A stretch of DNA of 64,000 nt, from the NCBI GenBank assembly GCA_044892525.1, contig CM097885.1, positions 9,116,001 to 9,180,000 on the forward strand. Direction: 5' to 3'. The position numbers and the translations under genes are program-made. This document shows positions 6,727-62,674 of the stretch, one piece after another; position 1 is the stretch's first letter; each line of letters starts with the position of its first letter. The DNA comes from Schmidtea polychroa (lineage: Eukaryota). The notes under the pieces are model-generated. The model saw only the letters and a list, made by a program, of their open reading frames with translations. It was not told the origin of the DNA and did no database searches.

Positions 6727-6794
<68 letters not shown>

Positions 6795-11620: not shown

Positions 11621-11730
11621 TGAAATTGTAATTGCGCGATGTTGTAGAGAATTAAATTCTGCCTATACATGGTTACACTTAAATCTCGATCAGACATGTG
11701 AAAAGAGACATAAAAGATAAAAAACAGTAG

Positions 11731-17441: not shown

Positions 17442-17628
17442 TTTTATTGAATAAATTTTATATCTTTACATTTGTTATTTGGTAAATTTTTATGTTTGTT
17501 ATGTGTCTAGTTCATTTTTATGTGTTTAGTTAATGTTTATATGTTTTGTTATGTGCCTAGTTATTTTTATGTGTTTAGTTAATTTTTTATGTGTTGTATA
17601 GTATTTGGTTGATATATTATTAATATTA

Positions 17629-17693
<65 letters not shown>

Positions 17694-17694
17694 A

Positions 17695-18844
17695 TTTCAT
17701 AAAAATTTTCATTAAAAATTATCTTAAAAATTATTCTATTAAAATTTCCATTAAAAATTACCATTGAAAATTATTCATAAAAATTTCTATTAAAAATTAC
17801 TTAAAAAATAATTCATTAAAATTTCCATTAAAAAATTTCAATTCTCAAACACCTTCTATTTTTGTTAATAAATTTAAAAATCTTACTTTAATTTACTTAT
17901 TACATTACTTTAATTTACTTATTTAAAAATTATTACTTTAATTTACTTATTTAACTTTAATTTAAATTTTTTTTACCATTGATTATTTAATTTTAAAATT
18001 TGGACCTTAATTAACTTTAATTTAATTTTTAGAACCATAATTTACTTTAATTTTAAAATTTTTGACCATTATTTACTGTAATTTAATTTTTAGAACCATT
18101 ATTTACTGTAATTTAAAATATTTGGACCATTATTTACTTTAATTTAATTTTTTAGAACCATTATTTACTTTAATTTAAAAATTTGGATCATAATTTACTT
18201 TAATTTAAATTTTTGGACTGTAATTCAAAAATTTTGACCATAATTTACTTTAATTTAATTTTTAAGAACCATAATTTACTTTAATTTAAAAATTTGGACC
18301 ATAATTTACTGTAATTTAATTTTTTAGAACCATTATTTACTTTAATTGAAAAATCTTAGCCCATAATTTACTTATTTAGACCATAATTTACTTTATTTCA
18401 AAAATAAATCTGAACCTTGATTTACTTAAATTTTTAGATCCATCATTTACTTTATTTTTAAATTTTAGACCCATAATTTGCTTTATTTTAAAAATTTACT
18501 ATGCGTTTTTTAATGTAAACCACCTTTTCTATTGAAATTCTCATGACCAAGAAGATCCCCTCACTATAGTGTGAAAAATCCATGCTTTTTTATTGAAGAC
18601 TACCTTTTTCTATTGAAATTCTCAGGACCAAGGAGACCCACCCAAATAATATTTATCCTTGGCTTGTTTATTGAAAAAAAAAAAAAAAAAAAAAAAATTT
18701 TGTATTTAAAATCCCAGAAAACATTGGGCATTACGGCAACAATTATGTAATCAAAAAATGTCTACGGAAAAAGTTATGCAATCAAAAGTTTGCAACATTT
18801 TTACCCCCCCCCCTATTGCTGCCGTAAGCCACTAACTACCTACT
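17695..18844 (-). repeat. Polinton family B TIR, mirror copy
   Basis: Reverse complement of 5571-6725, ends ctaactacctact. Confidence 0.9.
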
Positions 18845-30300: not shown

Positions 30301-31753
30301 ATTCAATTTGAATGATCAAATATTTTTTTTATTTACTGGATGATTAATGATTAGAATTCATTCTTGTCCATTAATTACATTTTTATAATAATTATTTGGT
30401 ATATTTTGAATAATTTAAATTTTTACAAAAATTTAATCAATTTTTACCTAGTTATTGATGCCTTGAGTTCAATTAATGTTTCATCTAATTTGTCAAGTGA
30501 AGAGTATTTGCTTTTATAGATCTATTTGGTAATACATAGTTGTTGGTTGTTAGTAGTTAGTACTTGGTAGTTGGTATCTGATTGACTTTTTAGATTTTGA
30601 TAAGATATTGTATGTGATGAAGATTATTTTGTATTTAATTGCTATTATTTTAATTGTTGTTAGTTGATTGTTGGTACTTTATATCTGGTTGATAGTTTTT
30701 TGCTGATAGTCTTGGTATCTTGTTGTAAGTACTTAACTGATAGCGTTTGGTATATTGTTGTAAGTACTTGGTATCTAGTTGAAAATACGTGTTTATAGTT
30801 ACTGGTAGATGATATTAAGTTGTTGGTATCTTGTACTTGGTAGTTGGTGCGGTGTTGTTAGTATCTAGTTGTAGGTTGATATTTGTTAATTTCTCGATGG
30901 GTTTTGATGCTGGTTGTAAGTACTTGGTATCTAGTTGTTAGCTGGTTGTTAGTACTTAGTAGCTAGTTAATGGGTAGGTGTGGGGATTGAGAGTTAGCAA
31001 TATCCTTACGACCAGTACCCTTACGACTAATACCCTTACGAATAGTACCTTTACGACTAATACCCTTACGACCAGTACCCTTACGACCTGTACCCTTAGC
31101 TGGTTGTTAGTACTTAGTAGCTAGTTAATTGGTAGGTGGGGGGTTGAGTGTTAGCAATATCCTTACGACCAGTACCCTTACGACCAAAACCCCTACGACT
31201 AGTACCTTTACGAATAGTACCTTTACGACTAATACCCTTACGACTAGTACCCTCAGGGGGTCAAAACATCCTGTCGGATAAACTCAGAGTATATATAATA
31301 AAACTGATCAACAATAAGTATTTATTGAATGCGATTTTTACTTTGCAATAATAAGTCAGTAGTTATCATTTAAAAGAAGAATGTTTTGTAAATTAGAATT
31401 CATTAGTCTTTCATTGTAATTTAAATTATTTTGAATTTCACGTGGTGTTTTAAAGTGATTGAGTTGTGGTTTTTTGATGAAAATCAACATTTTTGTTAAA
31501 TTTAGACATTTTGAAAAGGTTTTTCTACTGATTGTAATTAAAATTATTATAGAAGCTGTATAAAAAATTAATTTAAAAAAAATACAATTCATAAAATACA
31601 ATAAAGAATATTTAGTTGATTGTAAGTAGTTAGTTGTAAGTATGTGGTTGTTTGAGAGTTAGTTAGTACGTGGTATCATGTTGAAAGTATTTGGTACTTA
31701 TTTGTTAGCACCTAGTTAAAAATATTTAGTAACCCATTGTTGGTAACTGTTGA

Positions 31754-31825
<72 letters not shown>

Positions 31826-33770
31826 TCATTAAAATTTTCATTAAAAATTAACTTAAAAAATTATTTCATTAAAATTTAATTTAAAAATTAACTTAAAAAA
31901 TTTTACATTTAAAATTAACTTAAAAATAGTTTCCATTTAAATTTTCATTAAAAATTACATTTCTCAAAAAAGTTGGTGGTTATTCAATCTTTTGATAATA
32001 AATTTAAAAATCTTAGTTTAATTTACTTATTACATTACTTATTTAAAAATTATTACTTTAATTTACTCATTTAGCTTTAATTTAAAATTTAAACCATAGT
32101 TTTCTTTAATTTAAAATTTTGAACCTTAATTTACTTATTTAAAATTTTTAACTTTAATTTACTTAACCTTAATTTACCTATTTATCCTTTATTACTTAAT
32201 TTTACACCATAATTTACTAAACAACTAATTATAACCCTTATTTTCATATTTAACTAATAATTTCATGTGGTCATTGATTAATTGACGAAGATTTGCATCT
32301 AAAATTAACATTGAAAATCCCAGAAAACTTTCATCCTAAATTGACTTTAACTTTAATATTTTAAATCATTGATTAGTTAATTTTAAAATTAAACATTAAT
32401 TTACCTATTTAACCAATAATTTCATGTGGTCATCTGGTTATAAGTACTTGGTATCTAGTTGACAGTGCTTAGTACTAGGTATCTTGTACTTGGTTGTTAG
32501 TACTTGGTTGATAATGCTTAGTACCTGGTTGTTAGTTGATTGTTGGTACTTGGTAGGTGGTAGCTAGTTGTTAGCTGGTTGTTTGAGAGTTAGTTAGTAC
32601 GTGGTAATTTGTAGCTAGTTGTTAGCTTGTTTTTTTAGTTGTTAGTACTTGGTAGGTGGTTGTAGGTACTTAGAAGTTGGTTGATAATGCTTAGTACCTG
32701 GTTGTTGACGGTTGTGAGTAGTTGGTATCTCGTACCTAGTTGGTTACTTGTTTATGGTTGTTAGTACTTGTTAGGTGGTTGTAGGTACTTAGTATCAGGT
32801 AACTGGTTGTTAGTAACTAGTTGTAGGTTGTAGGTACTTAGTAGTTGGTTGATGATGCTTAGTACCTGGTTGTTGACGGTCGTGAGTACTTGCTAGGTGG
32901 TAGCTAGTTGGTTGCATGTTTTTGGTTGTTAGTATCTAGTTGTAGGTATCTGGTTGTTAATACATGTTCGTAAGTTACTGGTTGTTGGTACTAAGTTGTT
33001 GGTTTGTTGTTGAATTATTATTAAAATTTGTCTTTGAAAAATATTTCAAAAAAATTTTCATTAAAAATTATCTTAAAAATTTCCATCTAAAATTATCATT
33101 GAAAATTATTTCATAAAAATTTTCATTAAAAAATTTCAATTCTCAAACACCTACTATTATTCCAACTTTTTTTTAATAAATTTAAAAATCTTACTTTAAT
33201 TTACTTATTACATTACTTATTTAAAAATTATTACTTTAATTTACTTATTCAACTTTAATTAAAAATATTTTACCATTGATTACTTAATTTAAAAATTTGG
33301 ACCTTAATTAACTTTAATTTAATTTTTTAGAACCTTTATTTAGTTATTTGAGCCCATTCATTACTTTAATTAAAAATTTGAACCATTATTTACTTTAATT
33401 TAAAAATTTGAAACTTAATTTACTTTAATTTAAAAATTTGAACCTTAATTTACTTAATTGAGCCCTTAATTAACTTTAATTTAAAAATTTGAACCATTAT
33501 TTACTTTAATTTAAAAATTTGAACCTTAATTAACTTATTTGAGCCCATTGATAACTTTTATTCAAAAATCTAAGCCAATAATTACTTTAATTCAAAAATA
33601 TGAACCTTAATTTACTTATTTGGACCATAATTTACTTTAATTCAAAAATCTTAGCCCATAATTTACTGTAATTCAATTTTTTAGACCCATAATTTGCTTT
33701 ATTTTAAAAAATTTACCACGTTTTTTAGTGTAGACCGCCTTTTTCTATTGAAATTCTCAGGACCAAGGAG
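27345..33770. repeat. Older, diverged and truncated relative of the giant element arm, with an internal fold-back
   Basis: 29210-33770 is colinear with 53530-58200; 27345-28400 is an inverted homolog of ~30700-31760. Confidence 0.8.
28268..31289. mobile_element. ~3-kb unit bounded by TA-flanked inverted (G/C)TCTGAGTTTATCCGACA ends with 15-bp subterminal repeats
   Basis: gtctgattttatccgacagg at 28268, cctgtcggataaactcagag ending 31289; cccttacgaccagta arrays at ~31003-31250. Confidence 0.55.
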
Positions 33771-34050
33771 ACGTAAATCCCGGTCCGATCCTGGTCCAAG
33801 GGAGCGACCTTCATCCAAACTACTCTCGTTCCACAGCACTATTTCGTTGCCATAATTGCCAAATCAATCATACGGGACTTTGCAAGATAGAAAAACCGAA
33901 AAAATATATATTGATACCGAAAAACACAGAATACATCATTACGAACAATGGATTAAAAACGTTCGGACAATTTGAGTCAGGTAGTATTATCAAAATTTAC
34001 AAGTTGAGTCGCAATCCAAAGGAAAATCGAGATCGACTGTAGATTATTTT

Positions 34051-42262: not shown

Positions 42263-44049
42263 TTTTTATTATTATTATTATTATTGCAAATATTAGTGAC
42301 AAACCTGAAGTATTTATTTTTACACACATACTTTAAATAATGGGGTAGAGAATTATTGTGTGTTTGCTTTAGGTAATAATTAAGAGTGTATTGACATTCG
42401 AAATGGAGTGCCAACAGAAAATTGGTATATATAAGTAGGTAGATAGTGGCCTACGGGAACAATTACCCCCCCCCCCCCCGGGGGGGGGGGGGTTGTTCCC
42501 AAATTTTTATTACGCAATTGTTCCCAACTCATTTTTTTGCTTTCAGGGATTTTTGGTCCAAATTTTTTTTTTATCACACTATAGTGAGAGGGTCTTGATG
42601 GTCCTGGGAATTTCTATACAAAAATCCGACTATCAATAAAAAAGTCAAGGATTATTCACACTATAGTGAGGGGGTCTCGATGGTCCTGGGATTTTCAATA
42701 CAAATAAAATTTTTTCTATACAAAAATCCGACTACCACTAAAAAAGCCAAGGATTATTCACACTATAGTGAGGGGGTCTCGATGGTCCTGGGATTTTCAA
42801 TACAAAAAATTTTTTTCTATACAAAAATCCTACTATCAATAAAAAAGCATGGTAATTTAAGGTCTCAGGATATTTTCAATACAAAAATCCGATTGTCACT
42901 AAAAAAGCATGGATTTTTCTAGGTCAATTCAGGTGGGTCTCCTTGGTCCTGAGAATTTCAATAGAAAAAGGCGGTCTTCAATAAAAAAGCATGGTAATTT
43001 AAGGTCTCAGGATATTTTCAATACAAATAGGCGGTCTACACTAAAAAAACCAAGGATTTTTCAGACTATAGTGAGGTGAGTCTCCTTGGACCTGAGAAAA
43101 AGGTGGTCTACACTGAAAAACGTGGTAAATTTTTCAATTAAAGTAAATTATGGTTCTAAAAAATTAAATTAAAGTAAATTATGGTTCTAAAAATTTAATT
43201 ACAGTAAATTATGGCTCAAATTTTTCAATTAAAGTAAATAATGGTTCTAAAAAATTAAATTACAGTAAATAATGGCTCAAAAATTTAAATTAAAGTAAAT
43301 TATGGTCCAAATTTTTCAATTAAAGTAAATAATGGTTCTAAAAAATTAAATTACAGTAAATGATGGTCCAAATTTTTCAATTAAAGTAAATTATGGTTCA
43401 AATTTTTCAAATAAGGTAATTATGGTTCTAAAAAATTAAATTAAAGTAAATTAAGGTTCTAAAAATTAAATTACAGTAAATAATGGTTCTAAAAAATTAA
43501 ATTAAAGTAAATTATGGTCCAAATTTTAAAATTAAAGTAAATTATGGTTCTAAAAAATTAAATTAAAGTAAATTAAGGTTCTTAAAAATTAAATTACAGT
43601 AAATAATGGTCCAAATTTTAAAATTAAGTAATCAAAGTAAAAAATAAAAATTAAAGTTAAATAAGTAAATTAAAGTAATAATTTTTTAAATAAGTAAATT
43701 AAAGTAATGTAATAAGTAAATTAAAGTAAGATTTTAAAATTTAATTACAAAATAATAGAAGGTGTTTGAGAATTGAAATTTTTTAATGAAAATTTTTATG
43801 AAATAATTTTTAAGTAATTTTTAATAGAAATTTTAATGAAATATTTTTCAATGGTAATTTTTAATGGAAATTTTTATGGAATAATTTTTTAAGTAATTTT
43901 TAATGGAAATTTTTATGAAATATTTTTCAATGATAATTTTAGATGGAAATTTTTATGAAATATTTTTCAATGATAATTTTAGATGGAAATTTTTAAGATA
44001 ATTTTTAATGAAAATTTTTATGAAATATTTTTCAAAGACAAATTTTAAT

Positions 44050-45110
44050 AATAATTCAACAACAAACCAACAACTTAGTACCAACAACCAGTAACTTATG
44101 AACATGTATTAACAACCAGATACCTACAACTAGTTACTAACAACCAGTTACCTGATACCAGATACCTACAACTAGTTACCTGATACCAACTACTAACAAC
44201 CACCTACCCATTAACTAGCTACAACCAGCTAACAACTAGATACCACGTACTAAATAACTCTCAAACAACCAAGTACTTACAACTAATTACCAGATACCAA
44301 GTACTATCAACCAGCTTACAACCTGATACCAACAACTAACAACCAACTACCAAGTACTTACAACTAGATACTAACAACCAGTTACCTGATACCAAGTACC
44401 TACAACTAGATACCACGTACTAAATAACTCTCAAACAACCAAGTACCTACAACTAATTACCAGATACCAAGTACTATCAACCAGCTAACAACCTGATACC
44501 AACTACTCACAACCAGATAACAACTAACAACCAGATACCAAGTACTTACAACTAGTTACTAACAACTAGCTACCAACTACTAAGTACTAACAACCAACAT
44601 CAACCAGGTACTAAGCATTATCAACCAAGTACTAACAACTAGATACCTAGTTACAAACAACCCGCTAACAACTAACAACTAGATACCAAGTACCAGTAAA
44701 TTACGAACATGTATTAACAACCAGATACCTACAACTAGTTACTAACAACTAGTTACCTGATAGCAACCAACTAGCTACCAACTACTAAGTACCTACAACC
44801 AACATCAACCAGGTACTAAGCATTAATTACCAACTACTAAGTACCTACAACCAACTAACAACCACCTACCAAGTACTAAGCATTATCAACCAACTACTAA
44901 GTACCTACAACCAACTAGCTACCACCTACAACTAGATACTAACAACCAGTTACCAACTACTAAGCATTAATTACCTACAACTAGTTACTAACAACTAGCT
45001 ACCAAGTACATACAACCAGACACTAAGCATTATCAACCAAGTACTAACAACCAAGTACAAGATACCTAGTACTGTCAACTAGATACCAAACACTTACAAC
45101 CAGATGACCA
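44050..45110. repeat. Degenerate strand-asymmetric short-unit repeat (caactagataccaagtactaacaac-like); also ~27350-27880, 32430-33010, 56080-57300
   Basis: Directly visible shuffled short modules. Confidence 0.85.
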
Positions 45111-45473
45111 CATGAAATTATTGGTTAAATATGAAAATAAGGGTTATAATTAGTTGTTTAGTAAATTATGGTGTAAAATTAAGTAATAAAGCATAAATAG
45201 GTAAATTAAGGATAAGTAAATTAAAGTTAAAAAATTAAATTAAAGTTAATTAAGGTCCAAATTTTAAAAATAAGTAATCAATGTTCTAAAAAATTAAATT
45301 AAAGTTAAATAAGTAAATTAAAGTAATAATTTTTAAAGAATTTAATTAAAGTAATAATTTTTAAATAAGTAATGTAATAAGTAAATTAAAGTAAGATTTT
45401 TAATTTTATTATCAAAAGATTGAATAACCACCAACTTTTTTGAGAAATGTAATTTATAATGAAAATTTAAATG

Positions 45474-45539
<66 letters not shown>

Positions 45540-45977
45540 TAATAATAATTCAACAGTTACCAACAATCGGTTACTGATTATTTTTTAACTAGGTGCTAAC
45601 AAATACTTACAACTAGATACCACGTACTAACTAACTCTCAAACAACCAGATACTTACAACTAACTACTAAATATTCTTCACTGTATTTTATGAAATGCTT
45701 TTTAAATTAATATTTTTTATACAGCTTCTATAATAATTTTAATTACAATCAGTAGAAAAACCTTTTCAAAATGTCTAAATTTAACAAAAATGTTGATTTT
45801 CATCAAAAAACCACAACTCAACCACTTTAAAACACCACGTGGAATTCAAAATAATTACAATGAAAGACTAATGAATTCTAATTTACAAAACATTCTTCTT
45901 TTAAATGATAACTTATTATTGCAAAGTAAAAATCACATTCAATAAATACTTATTATTGATCAGTTTTATTATATATA

Positions 45978-48900
45978 CTCTGAGTTTATCCGACAGGATG
46001 TTTTGACCCCCTAAGGGTACAGGTCGTAAGGGTATTAGTCGTAAGGGTACTGGTCGTAAAGGTACTAGTCGTAGGGGTATTGGTAACACTTAACCACAAC
46101 CTACCCATTAACTAGCTACTAAGTACTAACCACTAGGTTTCAAACAACAACTACTAACAACCACCATCAAAACCCATCGAGAAATTAACAAATATCAACC
46201 TACAACTATATAACAATCAGTAAACAACACTGTACCAACTACCAAATACAAGATACCAACAACTTAGTACCAACAATCAACTAACAACACATAAAAATAA
46301 TAGCAATTAAATACAAAATATTCTTCATCGCATACACTATTTTCTTATCAAAATCTAAGAAGTCAATCAGATACCAACTACCAAGTACCAAGTACTAACA
46401 ACCAACTACCTAGAACCAACAACTATGTACTAACAAATTGATCTTTAAAAGCAAATACTCTTCACTTGAAAAATTGGATGAAAAATTATTTGAACTCAAG
46501 GCATCAATAACTTGGTAAAAATTGATTAAATAATTGTAAAAATTTAAATTATTCAAAATAAATATCATAAAAATTTAATTAATGGACAAGAAAAAATTCT
46601 AATCATCCAATAAATAAAAAAAAATGCTGATCATTCAAGTTGAATCAACTAAGATAATAAATTAATAAGATAAGATCTAGTAGATAATTGATTAAGATTG
46701 AATAAATTAATTTAAATAAAATTAAATTTAATTATTTTTGTAAAAGTAATACATGTACTCAAATTGATTGACTGATTTCTCAATATATTCAAAAAAATCA
46801 GTATAAATTCATTACAATTATCAAAGTCAGCAATCTACAATAAAAATAATTATCATAAAATTCCAAAAGAGACTAGATAACTAATGATAACATCTAATAA
46901 ACCAGTAAATTTATTTAAATGACAATAATTGGTATATCCTAGTGAATTCTCCAATTTCTCATTTCCTCCCAAATATATCAATATGTAAAGATTAGTATTG
47001 TAATGATAAATACTTGTTAAAGATCATATATTCACCTCAAACTAACAAGATTCCTTAAAATCCCCTTAAATGACTATATTTCTACCCTTAATTCATATTA
47101 TTACAAATATTTCACTAAAATCATCTAAAAAGCATCAAATTTCCCTGAAATAACTCTATCTTTTAAGATTGATATTTTAATGATAAGTACTTGTTAAAGA
47201 TCATATATTCCCCTCAGACTAATAAGATTGCTCAAACTCCCCTTTAAATGACTATAATTCTAACTTTAATTCCTATTATCATACATGTTTCACTATTGAT
47301 AAAACCGGTTATAATTAACTTTTTGTTAATCACTGTACTCGAAATTTAAAATAAATATAACTGACTAGGTCCCATTAAAAGATTAAATTTATCCATTCAA
47401 TAAAATATATTTCTTCAAATGATCATTTTTACCAATATTCAACCGATTTAATTACTAATTAAAATCAAGATTTCTTCCAATAAAGATCAATTTTATTTAG
47501 TCGATGTTTTAAGTCCATATTTCTAAACTTTTGTCATTCTCCGCCTAAATAAAGATAAAAATAAATTAAAGTTGATATCAATCCCAATTATCTGTAAAGA
47601 TTTCATTGTCAAAACCAAGTAAATCGATCATTATCCCTACTTAATAAAACATTGTTCTAAATTAATTTACTGTGCATTAATCACAACCTAATAAAACGAT
47701 ATAATTATTATTGATTCATAACTGACTAATGTATTGCAATTTCCTTAAAAAAACATTGATATTTTACCAACATCACCCTTAAAAAATCATATATTCCCAT
47801 CGAAACCCTTCCCTCATTAAAAGCAACCGACTATATCTCCCTTACAATAATATATTCCCATCTTAACCCATCTCACATTAAATCTAACCGACTATATCCC
47901 CTTAAAAGATCATATTTTCCCCATCTTAACCGATCTCTCATTAAATCTAACCAACAATATCCCATCTTAACCGATCTCTCATTAAATCTAACCGACTATA
48001 TCCCTTTAAAAATCATATATTCCCATCTCTCATTAAATCTAATCGATAATATCCCATCTTATCCGATCTCTCAGCAAATATTTCTACCCTTTTAAACATC
48101 TATCCGATTATATCCCTTAATTTCCCTAAAGATTCCACCCACTTGAACCCTTTAATATATATCAATCCTCTTAATATCCTTAGAGAACTTCAAAAAGTAT
48201 GAATTTTCATAAACTGTTAAAGACACCAGGCATTCTTCCATTGAAATAATTTAGAAGCTAAATAATAAGAGCACACTAAAAGATCAAAATTTACTAAAAT
48301 TTTCTACAAATATTTACCATCAAATACTGGAGATGATATATATTGATTGATCATAATTCTTCATCGATTCAACCAATCATTTTCAAGCAATAACAGCAAA
48401 CTAAATTTCTGTATATCCTACAATAATTATCAAGTAAATTTAAAGTCATTGATAAATATTCTTAGAAAATTATTGAAAAAAATTATCTAGTCAAATATAT
48501 TACAAAGTTATCATCAAAAATTTATTCTATCACTTAATTATTAACCTAATTGTCAATGAAATTAATTTTTATTTAAAAACTATTCAATAAAATACAACTA
48601 ATTATCAAGAAATTAACTAAATTTATCAATTAAATTTATCACCATTAAAACTTTTAATCAGTCAACATGAAATTCTTAGAAAATTATTCAATATCCTCAT
48701 AAAAATTTATCCTACCACTTCATTATTGTAAAATCTCTAATTATTAACCTCATTGAAAATAATTTTTATTTAAAATTAAAAAAAAAAAAAACAAGTCAAT
48801 AAAAATACATCCAATTATCAAGAAATTATTAAATATTCATTCAATAAACATGAAATTTGCAAAAATGTTAGAAATCCATGAAAATGATAGATATCTACAA

Positions 48901-49175
48901 AAATTACGCATATTCACAAAAAAGTACGGAAATTCATGAAAATAATAGAAAATTACAAAAAATGATAGAAATTCATAAAAATGATAGAAATTTACTTGAA
49001 TAAAACCATCAACTCTAAAAAATTATCAATACCTTAAACAACAAATTTGTCTAAATTCAAATAAAAACATTAAATACCTTTACGACTAATACCCTTGCGA
49101 CATGTTGAATGTGAGTAGTACCCTTGTGAGCAATACCCATAGGGGGACAGAATATTTTGTCGGATAAACTCAGAG
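45978..49175. mobile_element. ~3.2-kb unit bounded by TA-flanked CTCTGAGTTTATCCGACA inverted ends, nested in the left arm
   Basis: tata|ctctgagtttatccgacagg ... tgtcggataaactcagag|tata. Confidence 0.55.
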
Positions 49176-50292
49176 TATATATTAATTAACTCATTTATCA
49201 TTGAATTAGTCAAATTATCGCAAATTTCGATAAAAAATCTAAAGTGGTAAGCAATGTAAAGAGAAATATTCTTTAAATTTTGATAAAATTAGCAATGAAG
49301 GTGGTAAGAATCTTCATTAAAGTGAGGAAATTATTCATTACTCGATTCAAATGGGTGAAAATAATTGGTAGAATAATCCATTAATGGAGGTAGATAATGA
49401 GAAGTGGCATAGATAAGAAGAAGGTGGATAAGAATGGAAGTATATTAATTGAATTTATTTAAAATTATTTCATAAAATTCATAAATTTAATAAAAAAAAA
49501 ACTTTTAAAACAAATATTTGTGGGGATGTTTTAAGTGAATAATTAGTGGAAAATAAAGGGGATATAAGTGAATAATTAATGGAGAATCGGGGGAATATAG
49601 GAGATTAAATAGTGGGATAATGAGAATCGGTGGAATATAAGTGAGAAGGATATGTAATTTAAACTATTTTATTACGTAACAAGCCACGACTAGTTTATTA
49701 CATAACAAGCCGTGACTAGTTTATAATTTTTATTTTAATTATATTTTGAATATCATTCTATTGTTTAATTTCAATAATAACTTTAAAAAATCTATAATAA
49801 TTAATAAATTAATATCTTGTTAACATTTATTTGAGAATTTAAAAAACTTTACTTAAAATTAGTGAAGTATTTAATTTTAATTGTATTTTATAAGACATAT
49901 ATTTGAGTATTAACTTATTTTGATTGGAGTATCACATTTAATATTGTGATGATTGTTTTCTAAATCGAAATATTTAGTGTAAAATAGTAAATTTAATAAT
50001 AAATAGCTACAATATTAAAGGTCTTTTTTTAAAAAAAATATTTACTTTCTATTACCTAATTCCATCATTAAGTTTAAAAAGTCTATAACTGTTAATAATT
50101 CAATTTCTTATTCACATTTTCTAATAAAACTTATATTTTTAAATTTAGTGTAAAGAATTTAATTTTAATTGTATTTTATAAGTCATTTATTTGAATATTT
50201 ATCTTATTTTTATTGAAAGGAGTAATATAATTCATATTATGATATTCGTTTCGAAATATTTAGTGTAGAATCGTAAATTTAATAGTATATAG

Positions 50293-51126
50293 CAACGGTG
50301 GGCAAATGCGGCTCTTCGTTGAGTAAACTGCGGCTCATTGATAATTGAATTTTTGATAATTGAATTTGAAAATTGAATTCGATTTTTTTATTTTGAAATT
50401 TTTTCAACTGAATTTTTAAAAAAAAATTTTTTGTTGCAATTGTATTTTTATAAATGTTAAAAAAAAGAATTGCAAGCGGGTTTCAAATGTAGGTTTGAAG
50501 ATTTGAAAAGTTTTAAATCTACATTTGCATTTTTTGTGAACCCATTTATTTGTGATATTATTGAAGATGGATTTCCAATTTCTGAAGTAATACTTGTTAA
50601 AAAAGCGGTTGGGGAATTGGAGTTATAAGATATGAAAGAGGACCAGGCTTTGCAAATGCACCATAAAGTTACTTCTATAATTGAATTTTGGAAACTCGTA
50701 CCAGAGGCAAAATATCCACACTTAAAACAAGCTGCTTGCCATCTAATTTCAATTTTTGGTACAACATATTGTTGTGAATCTTTGTACTCCACAATGAAGT
50801 TCGTGAAGTCGAAATATCGTTCACAGTTGACCAATCAGCATCTTACAGAATTGCTGCGAACAGCTTTAACAAAGTATACACCAAATTTCAAAGATTTGAC
50901 GAAAAGTCTTCGTTAATTCAAGAAATTTTATTACTTTTTATTAATGGATTTTTATTATATTTTATGTTTGTTACTTAAATTTTGAAATAATTGTTTTTAA
51001 TAGCGTTTAAGTCTTTTTTAATCAAATTAATGAAATAAAAAAAAATATGTAGTTCACTATGGTGGCTCTTTAAAAAATAAATTTTCGGAAAATGTCTCTC
51101 ATTGAACTCATGCGTGCCCACCCTTG
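50293..51126 (+). mobile_element. hAT Buster/Charlie (SPIN/GTF2IRD2-like) internal-deletion derivative
   Basis: TIRs caacggtgggca / tgcccacccttg; perfect 8-bp TSD gtatatag (nnnTAnnn). Confidence 0.93.
50632..50916 (+). pseudogene. hAT transposase C-terminal dimerisation domain fragment
   Basis: EFWK..KYPHLKQAA..LISIFGTTYCCESLYSTMKFVKSKYRSQLT. Confidence 0.9.
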
Positions 51127-52011
51127 GTATATAGCTATTATTGCAAGTACTTATACAACAAAAACTTTTTTATTTCTAATGTTTTATTCCATAAATAAGT
51201 TTTAAAGTATATAACTGGTAATAAATTAATTTCTTATTTAAATTTATTTAAAAAAGCTTTACTTATAAAATTTATATTTTCGAAGACTTATATTTGAATA
51301 TTAACTTATATTGATTGAAAAGGGTAATTGATTTAGAAATTATTTAGTGTAAATAAAAACATTTAAATTATTGAGGTATTAAAGTACCTATTCAAAAATT
51401 AAAAAAAAAAAAAGACCTAATCAATAATTTTCAATAAAATACTATTCACAGCTTGTTATGTAATAAACTAGTCACGGCTTGTTATGTAATAAACTAGTCG
51501 TGGCTTGTTATGTAATAAAATAGTTTAAATTACATATCCTTCTCACTTATATTCCACCGATTCTCATTATCCCACTATTTAATCTCCTATATTCCCCCGA
51601 TTCTCCATTAATTATTCACTTATATCCCCTTTATTTTCCACTAATTATTCACTTAAAACATCCCCACAAATATTTGTTTTAAAAGTTTTTTTTTTATTAA
51701 ATTTATGAATTTTATGAAATAATTTTAAATAAATTCAATTAATATACTTCCATTCTTATCCACCTTCTTCTTATCTATGCCACTTCTCATTATCTACCTC
51801 CATTAATGGATTATTCTACCAATTATTTTCACCCATTTGAATCGAGTAATGAATAATTTCCTCACTTTAATGAAGATTCTTACCACCTTCATTGCTAATT
51901 TTATCAAAATTTAAAGAATATTTCTCTTTACATTGCTTACCACTTTAGATTTTTTATCGAAATTTGCGATAATTTTAATGATTCAATGAAGAATGAGTTA
52001 ATTAATATATA

Positions 52012-55000
52012 CTCTGAGTTTATCCGACAAAATATTCTGTCCCCCTATGGGTATTGCTCACAAGGGTACTACTCACATTCAACATGTCGCAAGGGTATTA
52101 GTCGTAAAGGTATTTAATGTTTTTATTTGAATTTAGACAAATTTGTTGTTTAAGGTATTGATAATTTTTTAGAGTTGATGGTTTTATTCAAGTAAATTTC
52201 TATCATTTTTATGAATTTCTATCATTTTTTGTAATTTTCTATTATTTTCATGAATTTCCGTACTTTTTTGTGAATATGCGTAATTTTTGTAGATATCTAT
52301 CATTTTCATGGATTTCTAACATTTTTGCAAATTTCATGTTTATTGAATGAATATTTAATAATTTCTTGATAATTGGATGTATTTTTATTGACTTGTTTTT
52401 TTTTTTTTAATTTTAAATAAAAATTATTTTCAATGAGGTTAATAATTAGAGATTTTACAATAATGAAGTGGTAGGATAAATTTTTATGAGGATATTGAAT
52501 AATTTTCTAAGAATTTCATGTTGACTGATTAAAAGTTTTAATGGTGATAAATTTAATTGATAAATTTAGTTAATTTCTTGATAATTAGTTGTATTTTATT
52601 GAATAGTTTTTAAATAAAAATTAATTTCATTGACAATTAGGTTAATAATTAAGTGATAGAATAAATTTTTGATGATAACTTTGTAATATATTTGACTAGA
52701 TAATTTTTTTCAATAATTTTCTAAGAATATTTATCAATGACTTTAAATTTACTTGATAATTATTGTAGGATATACAGAAATTTAGTTTGCTGTTATTGCT
52801 TGAAAATGATTGGTTGAATCGATGAAGAATTATGATCAATCAATATATATCATCTCCAGTATTTGATGGTAAATATTTGTAGAAAATTTTAGTAAATTTT
52901 GATCTTTTAGTGTGCTCTTATTATTTAGCTTCTAAATTATTTCAATGGAAGAATGCCTGGTGTCTTTAACAGTTTATGAAAATTCATACTTTTTGAAGTT
53001 CTCTAAGGATATTAAGAGGATTGATATATATTAAAGGGTTCAAGTGGGTGGAATCTTTAGGGAAATTAAGGGATATAATCGGATAGATGTTTAAAAGGGT
53101 AGAAATATTTGCTGAGAGATCGGATAAGATGGGATATTATCGATTAGATTTAATGAGAGATGGGAATATATGATTTTTAAAGGGATATAGTCGGTTAGAT
53201 TTAATGAGAGATCGGTTAAGATGGGATATTGTTGGTTAGATTTAATGAGAGATCGGTTAAGATGGGGAAAATATGATCTTTTAAGGGGATATAGTCGGTT
53301 AGATTTAATGTGAGATGGGTTAAGATGGGAATATATTATTGTAAGGGAGATATAGTCGGTTGCTTTTAATGAGGGAAGGGTTTCGATGGGAATATATGAT
53401 TTTTTAAGGGTGATGTTGGTAAAATATCAATGTTTTTTTAAGGAAATTGCAATACATTAGTCAGTTATGAATCAATAATAATTATATCGTTTTATTAGGT
53501 TGTGATTAATGCACAGTAAATTAATTTAGAACAATGTTTTATTAAGTAGGGATAATGATCGATTTACTTGGTTTTGACAATGAAATCTTTACAGATAATT
53601 GGGATTGATATCAACTTTAATTTATTTTTATCTTTATTTAGGCGGAGAATGACAAAAGTTTAGAAATATGGACTTAAAACATCGACTAAATAAAATTGAT
53701 CTTTATTGGAAGAAATCTTGATTTTAATTAGTAATTAAATCGGTTGAATATTGGTAAAAATGATCATTTGAAGAAATATATTTTATTGAATGGATAAATT
53801 TAATCTTTTAATGGGACCTAGTCAGTTATATTTATTTTAAATTTCGAGTACAGTGATTAACAAAAAGTTAATTATAACCGGTTTTATCAATAGTGAAACA
53901 TGTATGATAATAGGAATTAAAGTTAGAATTATAGTCATTTAAAGGGGAGTTTGAGCAATCTTATTAGTCTGAGGGGAATATATGATCTTTAACAAGTACT
54001 TATCATTAAAATATCAATCTTAAAAGATAGAGTTATTTCAGGGAAATTTGATGCTTTTTAGATGATTTTAGTGAAATATTTGTAATAATATGAATTAAGG
54101 GTAGAAATATAGTCATTTAAGGGGATTTTAAGGAATCTTGTTAGTTTGAGGTGAATATATGATCTTTAACAAGTATTTATCATTACAATACTAATCTTTA
54201 CATATTGATATATTTGGGAGGAAATGAGAAATTGGAGAATTCACTAGGATATACCAATTATTGTCATTTAAATAAATTTACTGGTTTATTAGATGTTATC
54301 ATTAGTTATCTAGTCTCTTTTGGAATTTTATGATAATTATTTTTATTGTAGATTGCTGACTTTGATAATTGTAATGAATTTATACTGATTTTTTTGAATA
54401 TATTGAGAAATCAGTCAATCAATTTGAGTACATGTATTACTTTTACAAAAATAATTAAATTTAATTTTATTTAAATTAATTTATTCAATCTTAATCAATT
54501 ATCTACTAGATCTTATCTTATTAATTTATTATCTTAGTTGATTCAACTTGAATGATCAGCATTTTTTTTTATTTATTGGATGATTAGAATTTTTTCTTGT
54601 CCATTAATTAAATTTTTATGATATTTATTTTGAATAATTTAAATTTTTACAATTATTTAATCAATTTTTACCAAGTTATTGATGCCTTGAGTTCAAATAA
54701 TTTTTCATCCAATTTTTCAAGTGAAGAGTATTTGCTTTTAAAGATCAATTTGTTAGTACATAGTTGTTGGTTCTAGGTAGTTGGTTGTTAGTACTTGGTA
54801 CTTGGTAGTTGGTATCTGATTGACTTCTTAGATTTTGATAAGAAAATAGTGTATGCGATGAAGAATATTTTGTATTTAATTGCTATTATTTTTATGTGTT
54901 GTTAGTTGATTGTTGGTACTAAGTTGTTGGTATCTTGTATTTGGTAGTTGGTACAGTGTTGTTTACTGATTGTTATATAGTTGTAGGTTGATATTTGTTA

Positions 55001-55208
55001 ATTTCTCGATGGGTTTTGATGGTGGTTGTTAGTAGTTGTTGTTTGAAACCTAGTGGTTAGTACTTAGTAGCTAGTTAATGGGTAGGTTGTGGTTAAGTGT
55101 TACCAATACCCCTACGACTAGTACCTTTACGACCAGTACCCTTACGACTAATACCCTTACGACCTGTACCCTTAGGGGGTCAAAACATCCTGTCGGATAA
55201 ACTCAGAG
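52012..55208. mobile_element. Mirror of the 45978-49175 unit
   Basis: Reverse-complement copy. Confidence 0.55.
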
Positions 55209-55646
55209 TATATATAATAAAACTGATCAATAATAAGTATTTATTGAATGTGATTTTTACTTTGCAATAATAAGTTATCATTTAAAAGAAGAATGTTTTG
55301 TAAATTAGAATTCATTAGTCTTTCATTGTAATTATTTTGAATTCCACGTGGTGTTTTAAAGTGGTTGAGTTGTGGTTTTTTGATGAAAATCAACATTTTT
55401 GTTAAATTTAGACATTTTGAAAAGGTTTTTCTACTGATTGTAATTAAAATTATTATAGAAGCTGTATAAAAAATATTAATTTAAAAAGCATTTCATAAAA
55501 TACAGTGAAGAATATTTAGTAGTTAGTTGTAAGTATCTGGTTGTTTGAGAGTTAGTTAGTACGTGGTATCTAGTTGTAAGTATTTGTTAGCACCTAGTTA
55601 AAAAATAATCAGTAACCGATTGTTGGTAACTGTTGAATTATTATTA

Positions 55647-55712
<66 letters not shown>

Positions 55713-58700
55713 CATTTAAATTTTCATTATAAATTACATTTCTCAAAAAAGTTGGTGGTTATTCAATCTTTTGATAATAAAATTAAAAATCTTACTTTAA
55801 TTTACTTATTACATTACTTATTTAAAAATTATTACTTTAATTAAATTCTTTAAAAATTATTACTTTAATTTACTTATTTAACTTTAATTTAATTTTTTAG
55901 AACATTGATTACTTATTTTTAAAATTTGGACCTTAATTAACTTTAATTTAATTTTTTAACTTTAATTTACTTATCCTTAATTTACCTATTTATGCTTTAT
56001 TACTTAATTTTACACCATAATTTACTAAACAACTAATTATAACCCTTATTTTCATATTTAACCAATAATTTCATGTGGTCATCTGGTTGTAAGTGTTTGG
56101 TATCTAGTTGACAGTACTAGGTATCTTGTACTTGGTTGTTAGTACTTGGTTGATAATGCTTAGTGTCTGGTTGTATGTACTTGGTAGCTAGTTGTTAGTA
56201 ACTAGTTGTAGGTAATTAATGCTTAGTAGTTGGTAACTGGTTGTTAGTATCTAGTTGTAGGTGGTAGCTAGTTGGTTGTAGGTACTTAGTAGTTGGTTGA
56301 TAATGCTTAGTACTTGGTAGGTGGTTGTTAGGTGGTTGTAGGTACTTAGTAGTTGGTAATTAATGCTTAGTACCTGGTTGTTTTTGGTTGATAGTACTTA
56401 GTAGTTGGTAGCTAGTTGGTTGCTATCAGGTAACTAGTTGTTAGTAACTAGTTGTAGGTATCTGGTTGTTAATACATGTTCGTAATTTACTGGTACTTGG
56501 TATCTAGTTGTTAGTTGTTAGCGGGTTGTTTGTAACTAGGTATCTAGTTGTTAGTACTTGGTTGATAATGCTTAGTACCTGGTTGATGTTGGTTGTTAGT
56601 ACTTAGTAGTTGGTAGCTAGTTGTTAGTAACTAGTTGTAAGTACTTGGTATCTGGTTGTTAGTTGTTATCTGGTTGTGAGTAGTTGGTATCAGGTTGTTA
56701 GCTGGTTGATAGTACTTGGTATCTGGTAATTAGTTGTAGGTACTTGGTTGTTTGAGAGTTATTTAGTACGTGGTATCTAGTTGTAGGTACTTGGTATCAG
56801 GTAACTGGTTGTTAGTAACTAGTTGTAAGTACTTGGTAGTTGGTTGTTAGTTGTTGGTATCAGGTTGTAAGCTGGTTGATAGTACTTGGTATCTGGTAAT
56901 TAGTTGTAAGTACTTGGTTGTTTGAGAGTTATTTAGTACGTGGTATCTAGTTGTAGGTACTTGGTATCAGGTAACTGGTTGTTAGTATCTAGTTGTAAGT
57001 ACTTGGTAGTTGGTGGTTAGTTGTTGGTATCAGGTTGTAAGCTGGTTGATAGTACTTGGTATCTGGTAATTAGTTGTAAGTACTTGGTTGTTTGAGAGTT
57101 ATTTAGTACGTGGTATCTAGTTGTTAGCTGGTTGTAGCTAGTTAATGGGTAGGTGGTATCAGGTAACTAGTTGTAGGTATCTAGTTGTAGATATCTGGTA
57201 TCAGGTAACTGGTTGTTAGTAACTAGTTGTAGGTATCTGGTTGTTAATACATGTTCATAAGTTACTGGTTGTTGGTACTAAGTTGTTGGTTTGTTGTTGA
57301 ATTATTATTAAAATTTGTCTTTGAAAAATATTTCATAAAAATTTTCATTAAAAATTATCTTAAAAATTTCCATCTAAAATTATCATTGAAAAATATTTCA
57401 TAAAAATTTCCATCTAAAATTATCATTGAAAAATATTTCTTAAAAATTTCCATTAAAAATTACTTAAAAAATTATTCCATAAAAATTTCCATTAAAAATT
57501 ACCATTGAAAAATATTTCATTAAAATTTCTATTAAAAATTACTTAAAAATTATTTCATAAAAATTTTCATTAAAAAATTTCAATTCTCAAACGCCTTCTA
57601 TTATTTTGTAATTAAATTTTAAATTATTACTTTAATTTACTTATTTAAAATTTTTTACCATTGATTACTTAATTTAAAAATTTGGACCATTATTTACTGT
57701 AATTTAATTTTTAAGAACTTAAATTTACTTTAATTCAAAAATTTGGACCATTATTTACTTTAATTGAAAAATCTGGACCATAATTTACTGTAATTTAATA
57801 TTTTAGAACCATAATTTACTTTAATTTAATTTTTAGAACCATTATTTACTGTAATTTAATTTTTTAGGACCATTATTACCTTATTTGAAAATTTGAGCCA
57901 TAATTTACTTTAATTTAATTTTTTAGAACCATTATTTACTTTAATTTAAAAATTTGAGCCATAATTTACTGTAATTTAATTTTTTAGGACCATAATTACC
58001 TTATTTGAAAAATTTGAACCATAATTTACTTTAATTGAAAAATTTGGACCATAATTTACTGTAATTTAAAAATCTTAGTCCATAATTTACTGTAATTCAA
58101 TTTTTAGACCCATAATTTACTGTAATTTTAAAAAATTTACCACGTTTTTTAGTGTAGACCACCTTTGTCTATTGAAATTCTCAGGACCAAGGAGACCCAC
58201 CTTAATTTAATTCGAAAAATCCATGCTTTTTTATTGATAGTCGGATTTTTGTATTGAAAATATCCTGAGACCTTAAATTACCATGCTTCTTTATTGAAGA
58301 CTCACCTCACTATAGTCTGAAAAATCCTTGGCTTTTTTAGTGGTAGTCGGATTTTTGTATTGAAAATATCCTGAGACCTTAAATTACCACGTTTTTTTTT
58401 AGTGTAGACCACCTATTTCTCAGGACCAAGGAGACTCACCTCACTATAGTCTGAAAAATCCTTGGCTTTTTTAGTGTAGACCGGCTTTTTGTATTGAAAA
58501 TATCCTGAGACCTTAAATTACCATGCTTTTTTATTGAAGATCAGCTTTTGTATTGAAAATATCCTAAGACCTTAAATTACCATGCTTTTTTAGTGAAGAC
58601 CAGTTTTTGTATTGAAAATATCCTGAGACCTTAAATTACCATGCCTTTTTATTGATAGTCGGATTTTTGTATTGAAAATATCATGAGACCTTAAATTACC

Positions 58701-59992
58701 ATGCTTTTTTAGTGTAGACCAGCTTTTTGTATTGAAAATATCCTGAGACCTTAAATTACCACGTTTTTTTAGTGTAGACCACCTATTTCTCAGGACCAAG
58801 GAGACTCACCTCACTATAGTCTGAAAAATCCTTGGCTTTTTTAGTGTAGACCACCTATTTGTATTGAAAATATCCTGAGACCTTAAATTACCATGCTTTT
58901 TAGTGTAGACCAGCTTTTTGTATTGAAAAATTTTTTTGTATTGAAAATCCCAGGACCATCGAGACCCCCTCACTATAGTCTGAAAAATCCTTGGCTTTTT
59001 TAGTGTAGACCGGCTTTTTGTATTGAAAAAAATTTTTTGTATTGAAAATCCCAGGACCATCGAGACCCCCTCACTATAGTCTGAAAATTCCATGCTTTTT
59101 TATTGATAGTCGGATTTTTGTATTGAAAAATTTAATTTGTATTGAAAATCCCAGGACCATCGAGACCCCCTCACTATAGTGTGATAAAAAAAAATTTGGA
59201 CCAAAAATCCCTGAAAGCAAAAAAATGAGTTGGGAACAATTGCGTAATAAAAATTTGGGAACAACCCCCCCCCCCCCGGGGGGGGGGGTAATTGTTCCCG
59301 TAGGCCACTATCTACCTACTTATATACAGACTGATATTTCAGTCAAAGCACCCAAAAAATCATTTGCGAAGAAGAATTGCAAATTCAGTAATTGATATTG
59401 CAATATAAATTTGAGCATACAGATTTACATAACCGAGCTCAGGTGATAGCATTTAGAGACTATTAGCAAAGAAAACAAGACAAAAAGAGAACCTTATATA
59501 ACATTACATAATTGACTGTGTGAAAAGGTGAATATTTTATTTTGTAATATATCATTATTCTTATCAAATAAAAGTCTTGAACGAGCCAGTGTTTGACTTA
59601 TTTATTTATATAGGATCATCAAGTTGAGATTCTTGGAACCTCAACACATGTTAATTTCTGTATGGTTAATATTATTTATAGATATTATACAGCTGGTTAA
59701 TTTCAACATCGATATATTGAAGCCGAACTTATCAAATAGATTTTGAATTACTTAATGTTTGAAAGATTTATTTATTTTGGCCAGGAATATATAATCTTCA
59801 TCATTTATTGTTAGAAGTTTATCTATTATTAAAAAAGAATGATCGCAATCAATAGACAATTCTTGTACCTTATTTAAAATAATTAAATTACTAAATAATT
59901 ATAACATCAAACCTGTGGATCGTTTGAAGACATCGAGGAATATTTGTGAATGTTGTAAATGAAGTTATTAGACCTATTTATATATATATATG

Positions 59993-60877
59993 AGTAGGTA
60001 GTTAGGGGCTCCCGGCAACAATAGGGGGAGGGGGGGGGGGGGTAAAAAATGTTGCAACTTCTGATTGCGTAACTTTTGCCGTAGACATTTTTTTTATTAC
60101 ATAATTGTTCCCGTACGCTCCAATGACTTTTTTTTCTGGGATTTTCAATAGAAAAATTGTTTTCAATACAAAAAGTCAAGGATAAGTCAGTACTATTTGG
60201 ATGGGTTTCCTTGGTCCTGAGAATTTCAATACAAAATCCGGCTATCATTAAAAAAGCATGGATTATTCTGAGTGAGGGGGTCTCGACGGTCCTGAGAATT
60301 TCAATAGAAAAAGGTGGTCTACACTAAAAAGCATGGAATAATTTAGACTATAATGAGGGGTCACCTTGGTCCTATGATTTTCAATAAAAAAGGGGGGGGG
60401 GGGGGGTTTACACTTAAAAAACACGGTAGTTTTTGAATTAAAGCAAATTATGGTCTAAAATTTAAAATTAAAGTTAATTTAGGTCTAAATTTTTTCAGTT
60501 AAAGTTAATTAAGACTCAAATAAGTAAAGTAAGATTCTAAAAAATTAAATTAAAGTAAATTAAGGTCTAAAATTTAAAATTAGAGTTAATTAAGATCCAA
60601 ATTGAAAAATTAAGTAATCAATGGTCAAAATTTTTAAATAAGTAAATTAATGTAATAATTTTTAAATAAGTAATATAATAAGTAAATTAAAGTAAAATTT
60701 TAAAATTCATTAACAAAAAGTTGGAATAATAGTCAGTAATTGAGAATTGAAATTTTTTAATGAAAATTTTTATGAAATTTTTTTAGGATAATTTTAAATG
60801 AAAATTTTAATGTAATAATTTTTTATGTAAATTTTTTTTAAGTTATTTTTTTTTATAGATTAATAATAATAATTATT

Positions 60878-60934
<57 letters not shown>

Positions 60935-62674
60935 GTAATAATAGTAATAATATTTCAACCAAATACTATACAACACATAAAAATAACTAGACACATATCA
61001 AAACATATAAACATTAACTAAACACATAAAAATAACTAGACACAAAACAAACATAAAAATTTACCAAACACATAAAAAGAACAAAATTAAAGATATAAAA
61101 TTTTATTTAATAAAATCATTCTTCATCAGATAAAATAATGTCATTAATATCAGCTTCTCCAACAACTTCTCCAATATCTTCTCCAACATCTTCTTCATCA
61201 AATTCTTCTCCAACAATTTCTCCAACATTTAAATAACTTAATCTTACATGCCCATATGCTAAACTAGTATTTTTCCCCAGCCAAACCCTTTTGTCATCTG
61301 CGTTAGTTAGTGCTATTTTAGTATTTTTAATTGTAAAAATTTGATGATTTTTGCTTGTTATTTTTGTTTGAGGAATCGAAAAAATTTGATTAGTGTTATA
61401 ACAATCCAGATATGACTGATGTTTTATGTCACTACCTTTCAATGTTACACCTTTAGACTTTTTTGTTTCCTCATCACCCAACAAGCTATAACACTGAGGT
61501 CTAAGAAATACCCATTCCTTATATTTAAGACCTTTATTCTCGTCTTTGAACTTTCCAATGACAAAATCAAGGTTCTTACTATATAAGGAATGTCAACTAT
61601 TGTAATTGGAAGTATCTAATAAATTATCTCGAATCATTGCAGGTAGAAGAACCTCAAGTTTACAGTTAATTACTTCGAGGAAAAAAGAGTCTGTATCACC
61701 TGCAACGATATTAATTTTACAACTAAACTCATTGCGAAATGATTCTAAATCCTTATATTGTAATTCATACATTCTAAATTTAGATAGATCAAGTACAGAC
61801 TGACCAATGTAACCTGGTCTATCTAAACATATAGAATCTGAATTCAATAATGCTGCAATTAAATTATCATCTAAAATAACTTAAAAAATTATTCCATTAA
61901 AATTTTCATTTTAAATTATCCTAAAAAAAATTGATCTATAAAAAATTTCAGTAAAAAAATTACTTAAAAAAAAATATTTCATAAAAATTTTCAATTCTCA
62001 ATTACTGAATATTATTCCAACTTTTTGTTAATAAATTTTAAAATTTTACTAAATTTACTCATTATATTACTTATTTAAAAATTATTACATTTATTTACTT
62101 ATTTAAAAATTTTGACCATTGATTACTTAATTTTTCAATTTGGATCTTAATTAACTCTAATTTTAAATTTTAGACCTTAATTTACTTTAATTTAATTTTT
62201 TAGAATCTTACTTTACTTATTTGAGTCTTAATTAACTTTAACTGAAAAAATTTAGACCTAAATTAACTTTAATTTTAAATTTTAGACCATAATTTGCTTT
62301 AATTCAAAAATTTACCATGATTTTTTAGTGTAAACCCCCCTTTTTTATTGAAAATCACAGGACCAAGGTGACCAATCATTACAATCTAAATAATTCCATG
62401 CTTTTTAGTGTAGACCACCTTTTTCTATTGAAATTCTCAGGACCATCGAGACTCCTTCACTATAGTCTGAATAATCCATGCTTTTTTTATTGATAGCCGG
62501 ATTTTGTATTGCAATTCTCAGGACCAAGGAGACCCATCCAAATAATACTGACTTATCCTTGGCTCTTTGTATTATGTAATCAAAAAATATGTCTACGGCA
62601 AAAATTATGCAATCACAAGTTGCAACATTTTTACCCCCCCCCCTATTGTTTCCGGGAGCCCCTAACTTCCTACT
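59993..62674. mobile_element. 2.7-kb non-autonomous mini-Polinton (family B) with ~0.8-kb TIRs
   Basis: Ends agtaggtagttaggggctcccgg / ccgggagcccctaacttcctact; non-palindromic 6-bp TSD tatatg at 59987-59992 and 62675-62680. Confidence 0.95.
61116..61870 (-). pseudogene. polB: pPolB family B 3' fragment
   Basis: Near-identical to the C-terminus of the 939-aa polymerase (GDTDSFF, KGVTLKGSDIKHQ); retains the acidic tail. Confidence 0.95.

Follow-up and report, generated by a model that had tools for sequence, protein, structure and literature searches.

We analysed a 64,000-nt stretch of the planarian Schmidtea polychroa (assembly GCA_044892525.1, contig CM097885.1, positions 9,116,001 to 9,180,000), hereafter the window, whose own numbering is used throughout. 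Within a contig of 272 Mb it spans 9.12-9.18 Mb, and all genome searches covered the 781-Mb assembly, which has four chromosome-size contigs. The subject is a palindromic element without Polinton (Maverick) genes at 42434-59320. The window also holds a palindromic element with two protein-primed DNA polymerase B (pPolB) open reading frames (ORFs), a short deletion derivative of that type, and an older single-arm relative of the gene-less element (Table 1).

The gene-less element has a total length of 16,887 bp. Its arms measure 7,291 bp (left) and 7,858 bp (right), 89.7% of the whole, and enclose a centre of 1,738 bp. The inner arms were 99.76% complementary across 5,494 nt, of which 4,559 nt matched perfectly. 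The left end reads AGTAGGTAG (AGTAGG...), and the complement of AGTAGGTAG closes the element at 59320 (...CCTACT). The original prediction, made from the letters of the window, had described inverted symmetry between AGTAGG and CCTACT ends, arms of ~7.3 and ~7.9 kb occupying ~90% of the element, and no Polinton gene inside; all three statements were borne out. TATATA abuts both ends, and the flanks beyond these six bases are unlike each other. The hexamer proposed as a target duplication is thus present on both sides, but because TATATA is its own reverse complement, a target duplication and six extra symmetric bases are inseparable at this locus, and the 6-mer does not prove that the symmetry stops there.

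A perfect sub-terminal hairpin (42455-42500 and 59254-59299) consists of C14G13 between GGGAACAA and TTGTTCCC (-27.9 kcal/mol, z -4.55). It occurs in gene-less ends, with a plain G-run in its place in polymerase-bearing ends, and its C and G run lengths differ among copies. The outer arm tracts (left 1.8 kb, right 2.4 kb) are tandem arrays with units of 30, 60, 100, 142 and 170 nt; the left and right arrays differ in unit content and length and align at only 75-87%. Left-type outer arms gave matches of 99-100% on both arms of sister copies, and the asymmetry is therefore private to this locus. For the right outer arm (56900-59320) the best full-length genome match was 91%, the rest of the element being ~100% identical to many copies; the lack of a near-identical counterpart points to a private rearrangement or to an exchange with another subfamily. 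The arm tracts at 44100-45100 and 56100-57300 show a GC skew of about -0.4 and +0.4, respectively, and carry degenerate 7/14/21-nt repeats resembling ACCAACTAC.

The centre contains an 834-nt hAT miniature inverted-repeat transposable element (MITE) with 12-nt inverted ends, an 8-bp duplication (GTATATAG) and a dimerisation-domain remnant, and this MITE family itself has many genome copies at 99% identity. The hAT dimerisation fragment was the only Pfam domain found in the 20 ORFs of at least 50 aa in the arms and centre; the same scan revealed no pPolB, integrase, capsid, packaging ATPase or protease gene. Rfam gave no match in the scanned part of the element (42434-51500, E up to 1).

Further copies were sought with three probes. 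A 1,301-nt arm probe returned 3,317 first-look candidates; the best 40 were scored and were all ~100% identical, and 30 of them formed 15 convergent plus/minus pairs spaced 4.2-7.1 kb apart. A 201-nt terminus probe returned 2,098 candidates (best 40 scored, 96-100% identical), and a 71-nt marker probe only eight, too few for a census. Ten of the 15 pairs were fetched; those omitted were the 42434-59320 locus itself, three pairs whose spacing equals that of this locus, and one other. Copies with both ends located measured 14,669-17,045 bp, the right end of copy L022 lying beyond the fetched DNA. Perfect, direct, non-palindromic 6-bp duplications flanked six of the ten (AATAAA, AGCGCC, GAAGTG, ATTAAG, TTCATG and TATATT); a lack of other copies with direct 6-bp duplications, named beforehand as an outcome against the prediction, was thus not observed. 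Whole palindromes therefore insert as units with 6-bp target duplications.

The usual loop, ~0.9 kb of degenerate direct repeats, was present in eight of the ten copies, with arm-loop boundaries shifting by subfamily. One loop common to most copies indicates a single founder. In one copy with a clean AGCGCC duplication (L014+L015, G000:C2:85681000-85699400), the axis is displaced by ~0.5 kb into the usual loop and no unpaired segment is left, which shows that turn-round points can change. L016 has a different junction without the usual loop segments, and L010 has the longest inter-arm gap (1,272 nt). The MITE-bearing loop was found in full at five other loci, so the palindrome was copied after it had acquired this passenger; two pairs among these loci, separated by 12-19 kb, may have arisen by local duplication. 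Relative to the commonest arm type, the copies carried 0-5 substitutions in 3.1 kb (one L010 arm, 28), which makes the gene-less family very young.

The polymerase-bearing relatives share this architecture. The 1,020-aa ORF at 7055-10117 matched Pfam PF03175 (E 4.8e-31), and a genome search with it returned 20,920 candidates, of which the best 45 were scored and found to be 99-100% identical with open frames. Thirty-two of these 45 form 16 minus/plus pairs 7.1-8.5 kb apart. Four pairs were fetched, and all have arms of 6.2-6.9 kb at 99.5-99.8% identity around loops of 0.70-0.83 kb; three of the four have recognisable AGTAGG ends and measure 13.3-14.5 kb. Each arm contains one open, outward-reading ORF of 1,207-1,306 aa, and these two polymerase ORFs are the only ORFs of at least 150 aa in each of the four elements, an integrase being absent. 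For the 1,306-aa polymerase ORF, Pfam gave only a weak Endonuclease_7 match and a PDB sequence search gave none. Duplications of 6 bp flank three of the four copies (CGCTTA, TTCTAT and GACCCC), and the fourth lies in an ATA microsatellite. Since the polymerase-bearing siblings are palindromic too, the mirror build is the norm of the lineage and not only that of a defective by-product. The notion of a sporadic snap-back product of an ordinary Polinton with short terminal inverted repeats (TIRs) did not survive this result.

The two families are joined by their ends. When 12 ends from gene-less elements, polymerase-bearing elements and deletion derivatives are compared, 22 of the terminal 30 positions are invariant, and two gene-less copies (L018 and L022) are identical to the window's polymerase element at 29 of the first 30. 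The sub-terminal repeats of the gene-less and polymerase elements are 82% identical over ~0.95 kb. Homology detectable by BLAST comprises the terminal 30 nt and ~0.3-0.95 kb of sub-terminal repeats, so that the predicted homology of the outer ~1.5 kb with the TIR of a polymerase element holds for this part and not for the whole. Sharing ends with gene-bearing elements in its own genome but possessing none of their genes, the gene-less element is built as a non-autonomous derivative would be. Polinton-type AG...CT ends with a 6-bp duplication were found in six of ten gene-less copies, in three of four polymerase-bearing copies and in the 2.7-kb derivative, the 42434-59320 locus being ambiguous.

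Substitutions were then compared between the arms. In an alignment of 3.06 kb of polymerase region covering 10 arms (both arms of the window element and of the four fetched ones), 13 of 14 variable sites were mirrored in both arms of every carrier and one was single-arm; the mirrored sites comprise eight private to one element and five common to two. The gene-less alignment covered ~5.3 kb and 21 arms (gap-free columns only, one L010 arm having been removed by a 95% identity filter) and yielded 15 private mirrored sites, three mixed sites, one site shared in one arm each and 33 single-arm sites. Three gene-less sites common to L020, L024 and/or L028 were mirrored in all carriers, indicating that the active lineage already carried the mirrored changes when these copies inserted. 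Identical changes arising independently at mirror positions are not credible as chance events. Mirrored substitutions in both families indicate that the arms template each other.

We consider it very probable that the gene-less element is real, mobile, derived from Polintons and dependent on functions supplied in trans. The predicted gene-less parasite of Polinton type stands in so far as there is a very abundant, young family that inserts as units with 6-bp duplications and shares the ends of gene-bearing elements; a source of integrase was not found. Homology of these ends with the ends of pPolB-bearing elements makes copying in trans the natural interpretation. In the fuller account, to which we give an even chance, the element is non-autonomous, belongs to a Maverick/Polinton-derived lineage, consists almost entirely of one long inverted repeat (7-8-kb arms, ~0.9-kb loop) and undergoes fold-back copying. 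The siblings' polymerase would copy the gene-less element from its ends, and an integrase-type enzyme encoded elsewhere would insert it. During strand-displacement copying, the released single strand would snap back into a 7-8-kb hairpin, an extreme form of the 'racket' or 'panhandle'; alternatively, the polymerase might copy back along its own product. Either route would regenerate a duplex end from which the next round could start, and each arm would serve as template for the other; such arm-to-arm templating would explain the mirrored substitutions. That the arms are homogenised through a fold-back replication intermediate, rather than by gene conversion on the chromosome, we rate slightly below an even chance. 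A wider proposal is tentative and on balance doubtful: the whole Maverick/Polinton-descended lineage, in its polymerase-only and gene-less forms, might live as 'hairpin replicons', with each protein-primed round passing through a fold-back or copy-back single strand. One arm would thereby rewrite the other, the mirror build would be inherited, the mirrored substitutions would be the first genomic footprint of the postulated intermediate, and the mirrored flanks described below would be collateral fold-back duplications of host DNA set off by the palindromes.

Several observations weigh against the fold-back account. The 33 one-arm differences mean that arm homogenisation is not constant, and the two outer arms of the 42434-59320 copy are dissimilar. 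The inner 5.5 kb of the gene-less arm has no homology to the polymerase element detectable by BLAST, and the arm therefore does not appear to be simply one helper end folded back. Two of the ten fetched copies have no duplication (L010, whose right end reads CCTTCT, and L020), and in a further one, L026, the flanks are mirror images (604 of 604 nt, 100%). Likewise, the window's polymerase element has no direct duplication, its flanks TTAAAA and TTTTAA being mirror images. Symmetry continuing into the flanks at other loci had been named beforehand as an outcome that would tell against the prediction; it was seen at L026 and at the window's polymerase element, and not at the six loci with clean duplications. 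Integration does not account for these mirrored flanks, which represent either fold-back duplications of host DNA provoked by the palindromes or mis-joins that the assembler made through long inverted repeats.

The insertion enzyme presents a further difficulty for fold-back copying with integration in trans. A genome-wide search for rve domains revealed only integrases of the long terminal repeat (LTR) type among the best 150 of 12,351 candidates. No source of the insertion enzyme was found in either palindrome family or among these scored rve matches. Moreover, all evidence on copies was drawn from one assembly. Four sets of public sequencing runs compared with window positions 41400-60400 consisted of short assembled contigs only, tens of thousands of them from all copies. 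None of the listed pieces spanned the element, and no empty-site joint was among 15 of the 856 joints; one 76-nt contig crosses the junction between left flank and end with 24 nt on the element side, below the bridging threshold.

Gene conversion between long inverted repeats is established, for example in large sex-chromosome palindromes. It is accordingly possible, if rather unlikely, that the palindrome arose once in a founder and was copied faithfully, the arms being kept alike only by chromosomal gene conversion without a fold-back intermediate. The single loop of most copies fits one founder, the 33 one-arm differences and the private array asymmetry show that arms can drift apart after insertion, and the mirrored substitutions, which otherwise speak for fold-back, could equally come from conversion. 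However, the sites shared by L020, L024 and L028, mirrored in all six of their arms, were mirrored in the active lineage before insertion. In addition, 13 of 14 polymerase sites are mirrored although the copies differ by few, so that conversion would have to be very frequent, and the displaced axis of L014 shows that turn-round points change. The data do not cleanly separate fold-back copying from chromosomal gene conversion.

Less probable still, and in our judgement improbable, is an ordinary foldback-type cut-and-paste transposon that resembles Polintons only at its ends, with both palindrome types moved by a DDE transposase from elsewhere and the polymerase uninvolved in copying. Long arms built partly of tandem arrays recall the FB elements of Drosophila, and integrase, capsid, ATPase and protease genes are absent from both families. 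A genome search with the capsid family of nucleocytoplasmic large DNA viruses also gave no match, but neither did the positive control of the same search. Against this explanation, open and almost identical polymerase ORFs occur in all of the best 45 of 20,920 candidates, which argues that the polymerase is under selection or was active very recently; thousands of copies at ~99.9% identity agree with replicative spread; and the 6-bp duplication and AG...CT ends are Polinton features. The weakest explanation, that the mirror structure is an artefact of the assembler or of chimeric fold-back reads, draws on the perfectly mirrored flanks at L026 and around the window's polymerase element (8.5 kb of flank and a second axis), as expected of a mis-join through a long inverted repeat, but we regard it as highly improbable given that the 42434-59320 element has two different flanks beyond 6 bp, at six of ten other loci the two flanks are unlike and carry matching non-palindromic duplications, the copies differ in private variants, array lengths and a passenger MITE, and the mirror build recurs in two families at dozens of loci.

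Polintons with a 6-bp duplication and AG/CT ends were reportedly described by Kapitonov and Jurka in 2006. To our knowledge, no study has demonstrated how Polintons/Mavericks replicate; the 'racket' model, with its protein-primed single strand, is based on gene content alone. The gene-less element resembles them in its AG...CT ends, its 6-bp target duplication and its size of 15-17 kb. It departs from autonomous Polintons in lacking pPolB, integrase, capsid, packaging ATPase and protease, and its siblings differ from them in encoding the polymerase alone, twice. Its arms, at 7.3 and 7.9 kb, occupy 90% of its length and are 5-50 times as long as published TIRs, for which a passage in PMC10748475 gives 100-1,500 bp, with target duplications of 5-8 bp. 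The 'racket' model of Polinton propagation is set out in a section of PMC4196379. In planarians, Polintons are described as an abundant class repressed by PIWI-interacting RNAs, in a portion of text that does not address their structure. In the literature searched (articles without their supplements), no account of palindromic Polintons or of Polintons with multi-kb TIRs was found. What is new is a palindromic Polinton/Maverick lineage with polymerase-only and gene-less members; Polinton ends and duplications were already known.

Deuring et al. in 1981 are said to have described the 'symmetric recombinant' (SYREC) of adenovirus 12, with viral ends around a large palindrome. Snap-back and copy-back genomes, together with SYREC as reported, would be the closest functional analogue of the gene-less element: they are genome-sized, carry the same viral end on both sides and a large palindrome of non-viral or unrelated DNA, contain no viral genes and need a helper, a dependence that the gene-less element would share. 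In the gene-less element the same end stands on both arms; only the outer ~1 kb is homologous to the polymerase-bearing element, and the inner 5.5 kb is not. Replication of defective genomes of the snap-back or symmetric-recombinant type needs a helper (PMC2396429). These genomes differ, however, in being extrachromosomal by-products of infected cultures, whereas the present element forms a germ-line family of thousands of integrated copies with duplications, and its polymerase-bearing relatives share the palindromic build.

The FB elements of Drosophila are likewise similar in their very long arms, partly of tandem repeats, their short loop and their many non-coding copies. They belong to another superfamily and make 9-bp duplications, in contrast to the 6-bp duplication here, and the ends of the present element match those of polymerase-bearing elements. 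Protein-primed linear plasmids and viruses (kalilo, the adenovirus panhandle) also have a protein-primed polymerase and ends that are kept identical, but they are organellar or episomal, make no 6-bp duplications and have arms much shorter relative to the genome. Insertions of kalilo in Neurospora carry long inverted repeats of target DNA on both sides, which resemble the mirrored flanks at L026 and around the window's polymerase element. A title in the reference list of PMC9863843 refers to the duplication of panhandle single strands by an adenovirus system.

The significance of these results lies in a very young animal family with thousands of copies, whose inverted ends now occupy 90% of the element and whose sequence changes are copied from arm to arm. 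With such a family, simple assays could put the protein-primed 'racket' model to the test. A further lesson is that massive spread remains possible for a virus-like element that has lost everything but its ends, or everything but its ends and polymerase. So many long, perfect palindromes probably destabilise the genome and cause errors in its assembly, and they probably also supply small-RNA pathways with long hairpin RNA.

Table 1. Palindromic elements, their parts and their relatives in the window.
Feature	Position	Strand
Polymerase-bearing palindromic element (polymerase ORFs 7055-10117 minus and 14306-17368 plus; loop 11812-12611)	5571..18844	
Older, diverged (72-90%) single-arm relative of the gene-less arm	29209..33772	+
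Left flanking TATATA, putative 6-bp target duplication (palindromic, ambiguous)	42428..42433	
Left terminus AGTAGGTAG..., 30 nt conserved with polymerase-bearing elements, then C14G13 hairpin (42455-42500)	42434..42600	+
Left outer arm, tandem arrays (102-, 142-, 30- and 13/40-nt units)	42601..44231	+
Left inner arm, non-coding, C-rich strand bias, short 7/21-nt repeats	44232..49724	+
Loop part A, degenerate direct repeats of ~250-290 nt, unmirrored	49725..50292	
hAT MITE, ends CAAcGGTGGGCA / CAAgGGTGGGCA, duplication GTATATAG, hAT dimerisation fragment at 50629-50916	50293..51126	+
Loop part B, its initial 8 nt being the target duplicate of the MITE	51127..51462	
Right inner arm, mirror of 44232-49724	51463..56954	-
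Right outer arm, tandem arrays ~570 nt longer than the left	56955..59153	-
Right terminus ...CTACCTACT	59154..59320	-
Right flanking TATATA	59321..59326	
2.7-kb deletion derivative of the polymerase-bearing type, duplication TATATG (non-palindromic)	59993..62674	+

The neighbouring element at 59993 had been taken for a pPolB-bearing element flanked by a target duplication. The duplication is present (TATATG), and of the polymerase gene only ~670 nt of the 3' end are retained.

The symmetry around the window's polymerase element begins 2,931 nt upstream of the window and ends at 27352. It takes in ~8.5 kb of flank per side, where a degraded, older polymerase gene (3061-5276) and a MATH ORF (24955-25458) are located. 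Upstream, a second axis joins 25878 to 27352, and a further polymerase pair lies 11-22 kb before the window. Window positions 1-27352 together with 10 kb upstream (L009) form a zig-zag chain of inverted copies. The gene-less copy with mirrored flanks (L026+L027) is located at G000:C1:217762500-217780800.

Searches for other possible helper genes gave weak matches elsewhere in the genome for the Pox_A32 ATPase and adenain (protease) families. An inverted pair of rve matches 14 kb apart was considered as an integrase source and rejected, as it proved gypsy-like on fetching. The Pox_A32 ATPase locus L038 was set aside as a helper because it adjoins an LTR retroelement. This locus (G000:C2:101942000-101950000) contains an open 242-aa ORF for a Pox_A32-like packaging ATPase, followed by five open ORFs without a Pfam match, and the cluster may be part of another virus-like element.

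The window is AT-rich, with about 23-33% GC in most 2-kb bins and 42% in one. The single-arm relative at 29209-33772 points toward 34 kb, where a GC-richer stretch with an unassigned 253-aa ORF (34051-34812) begins. In addition to the TRAF/MATH ORF, the window contains a Tc1/mariner-type transposase ORF with DDE_3 and helix-turn-helix (HTH) domains at 40322-41158, 1.3 kb to the left of the gene-less element.

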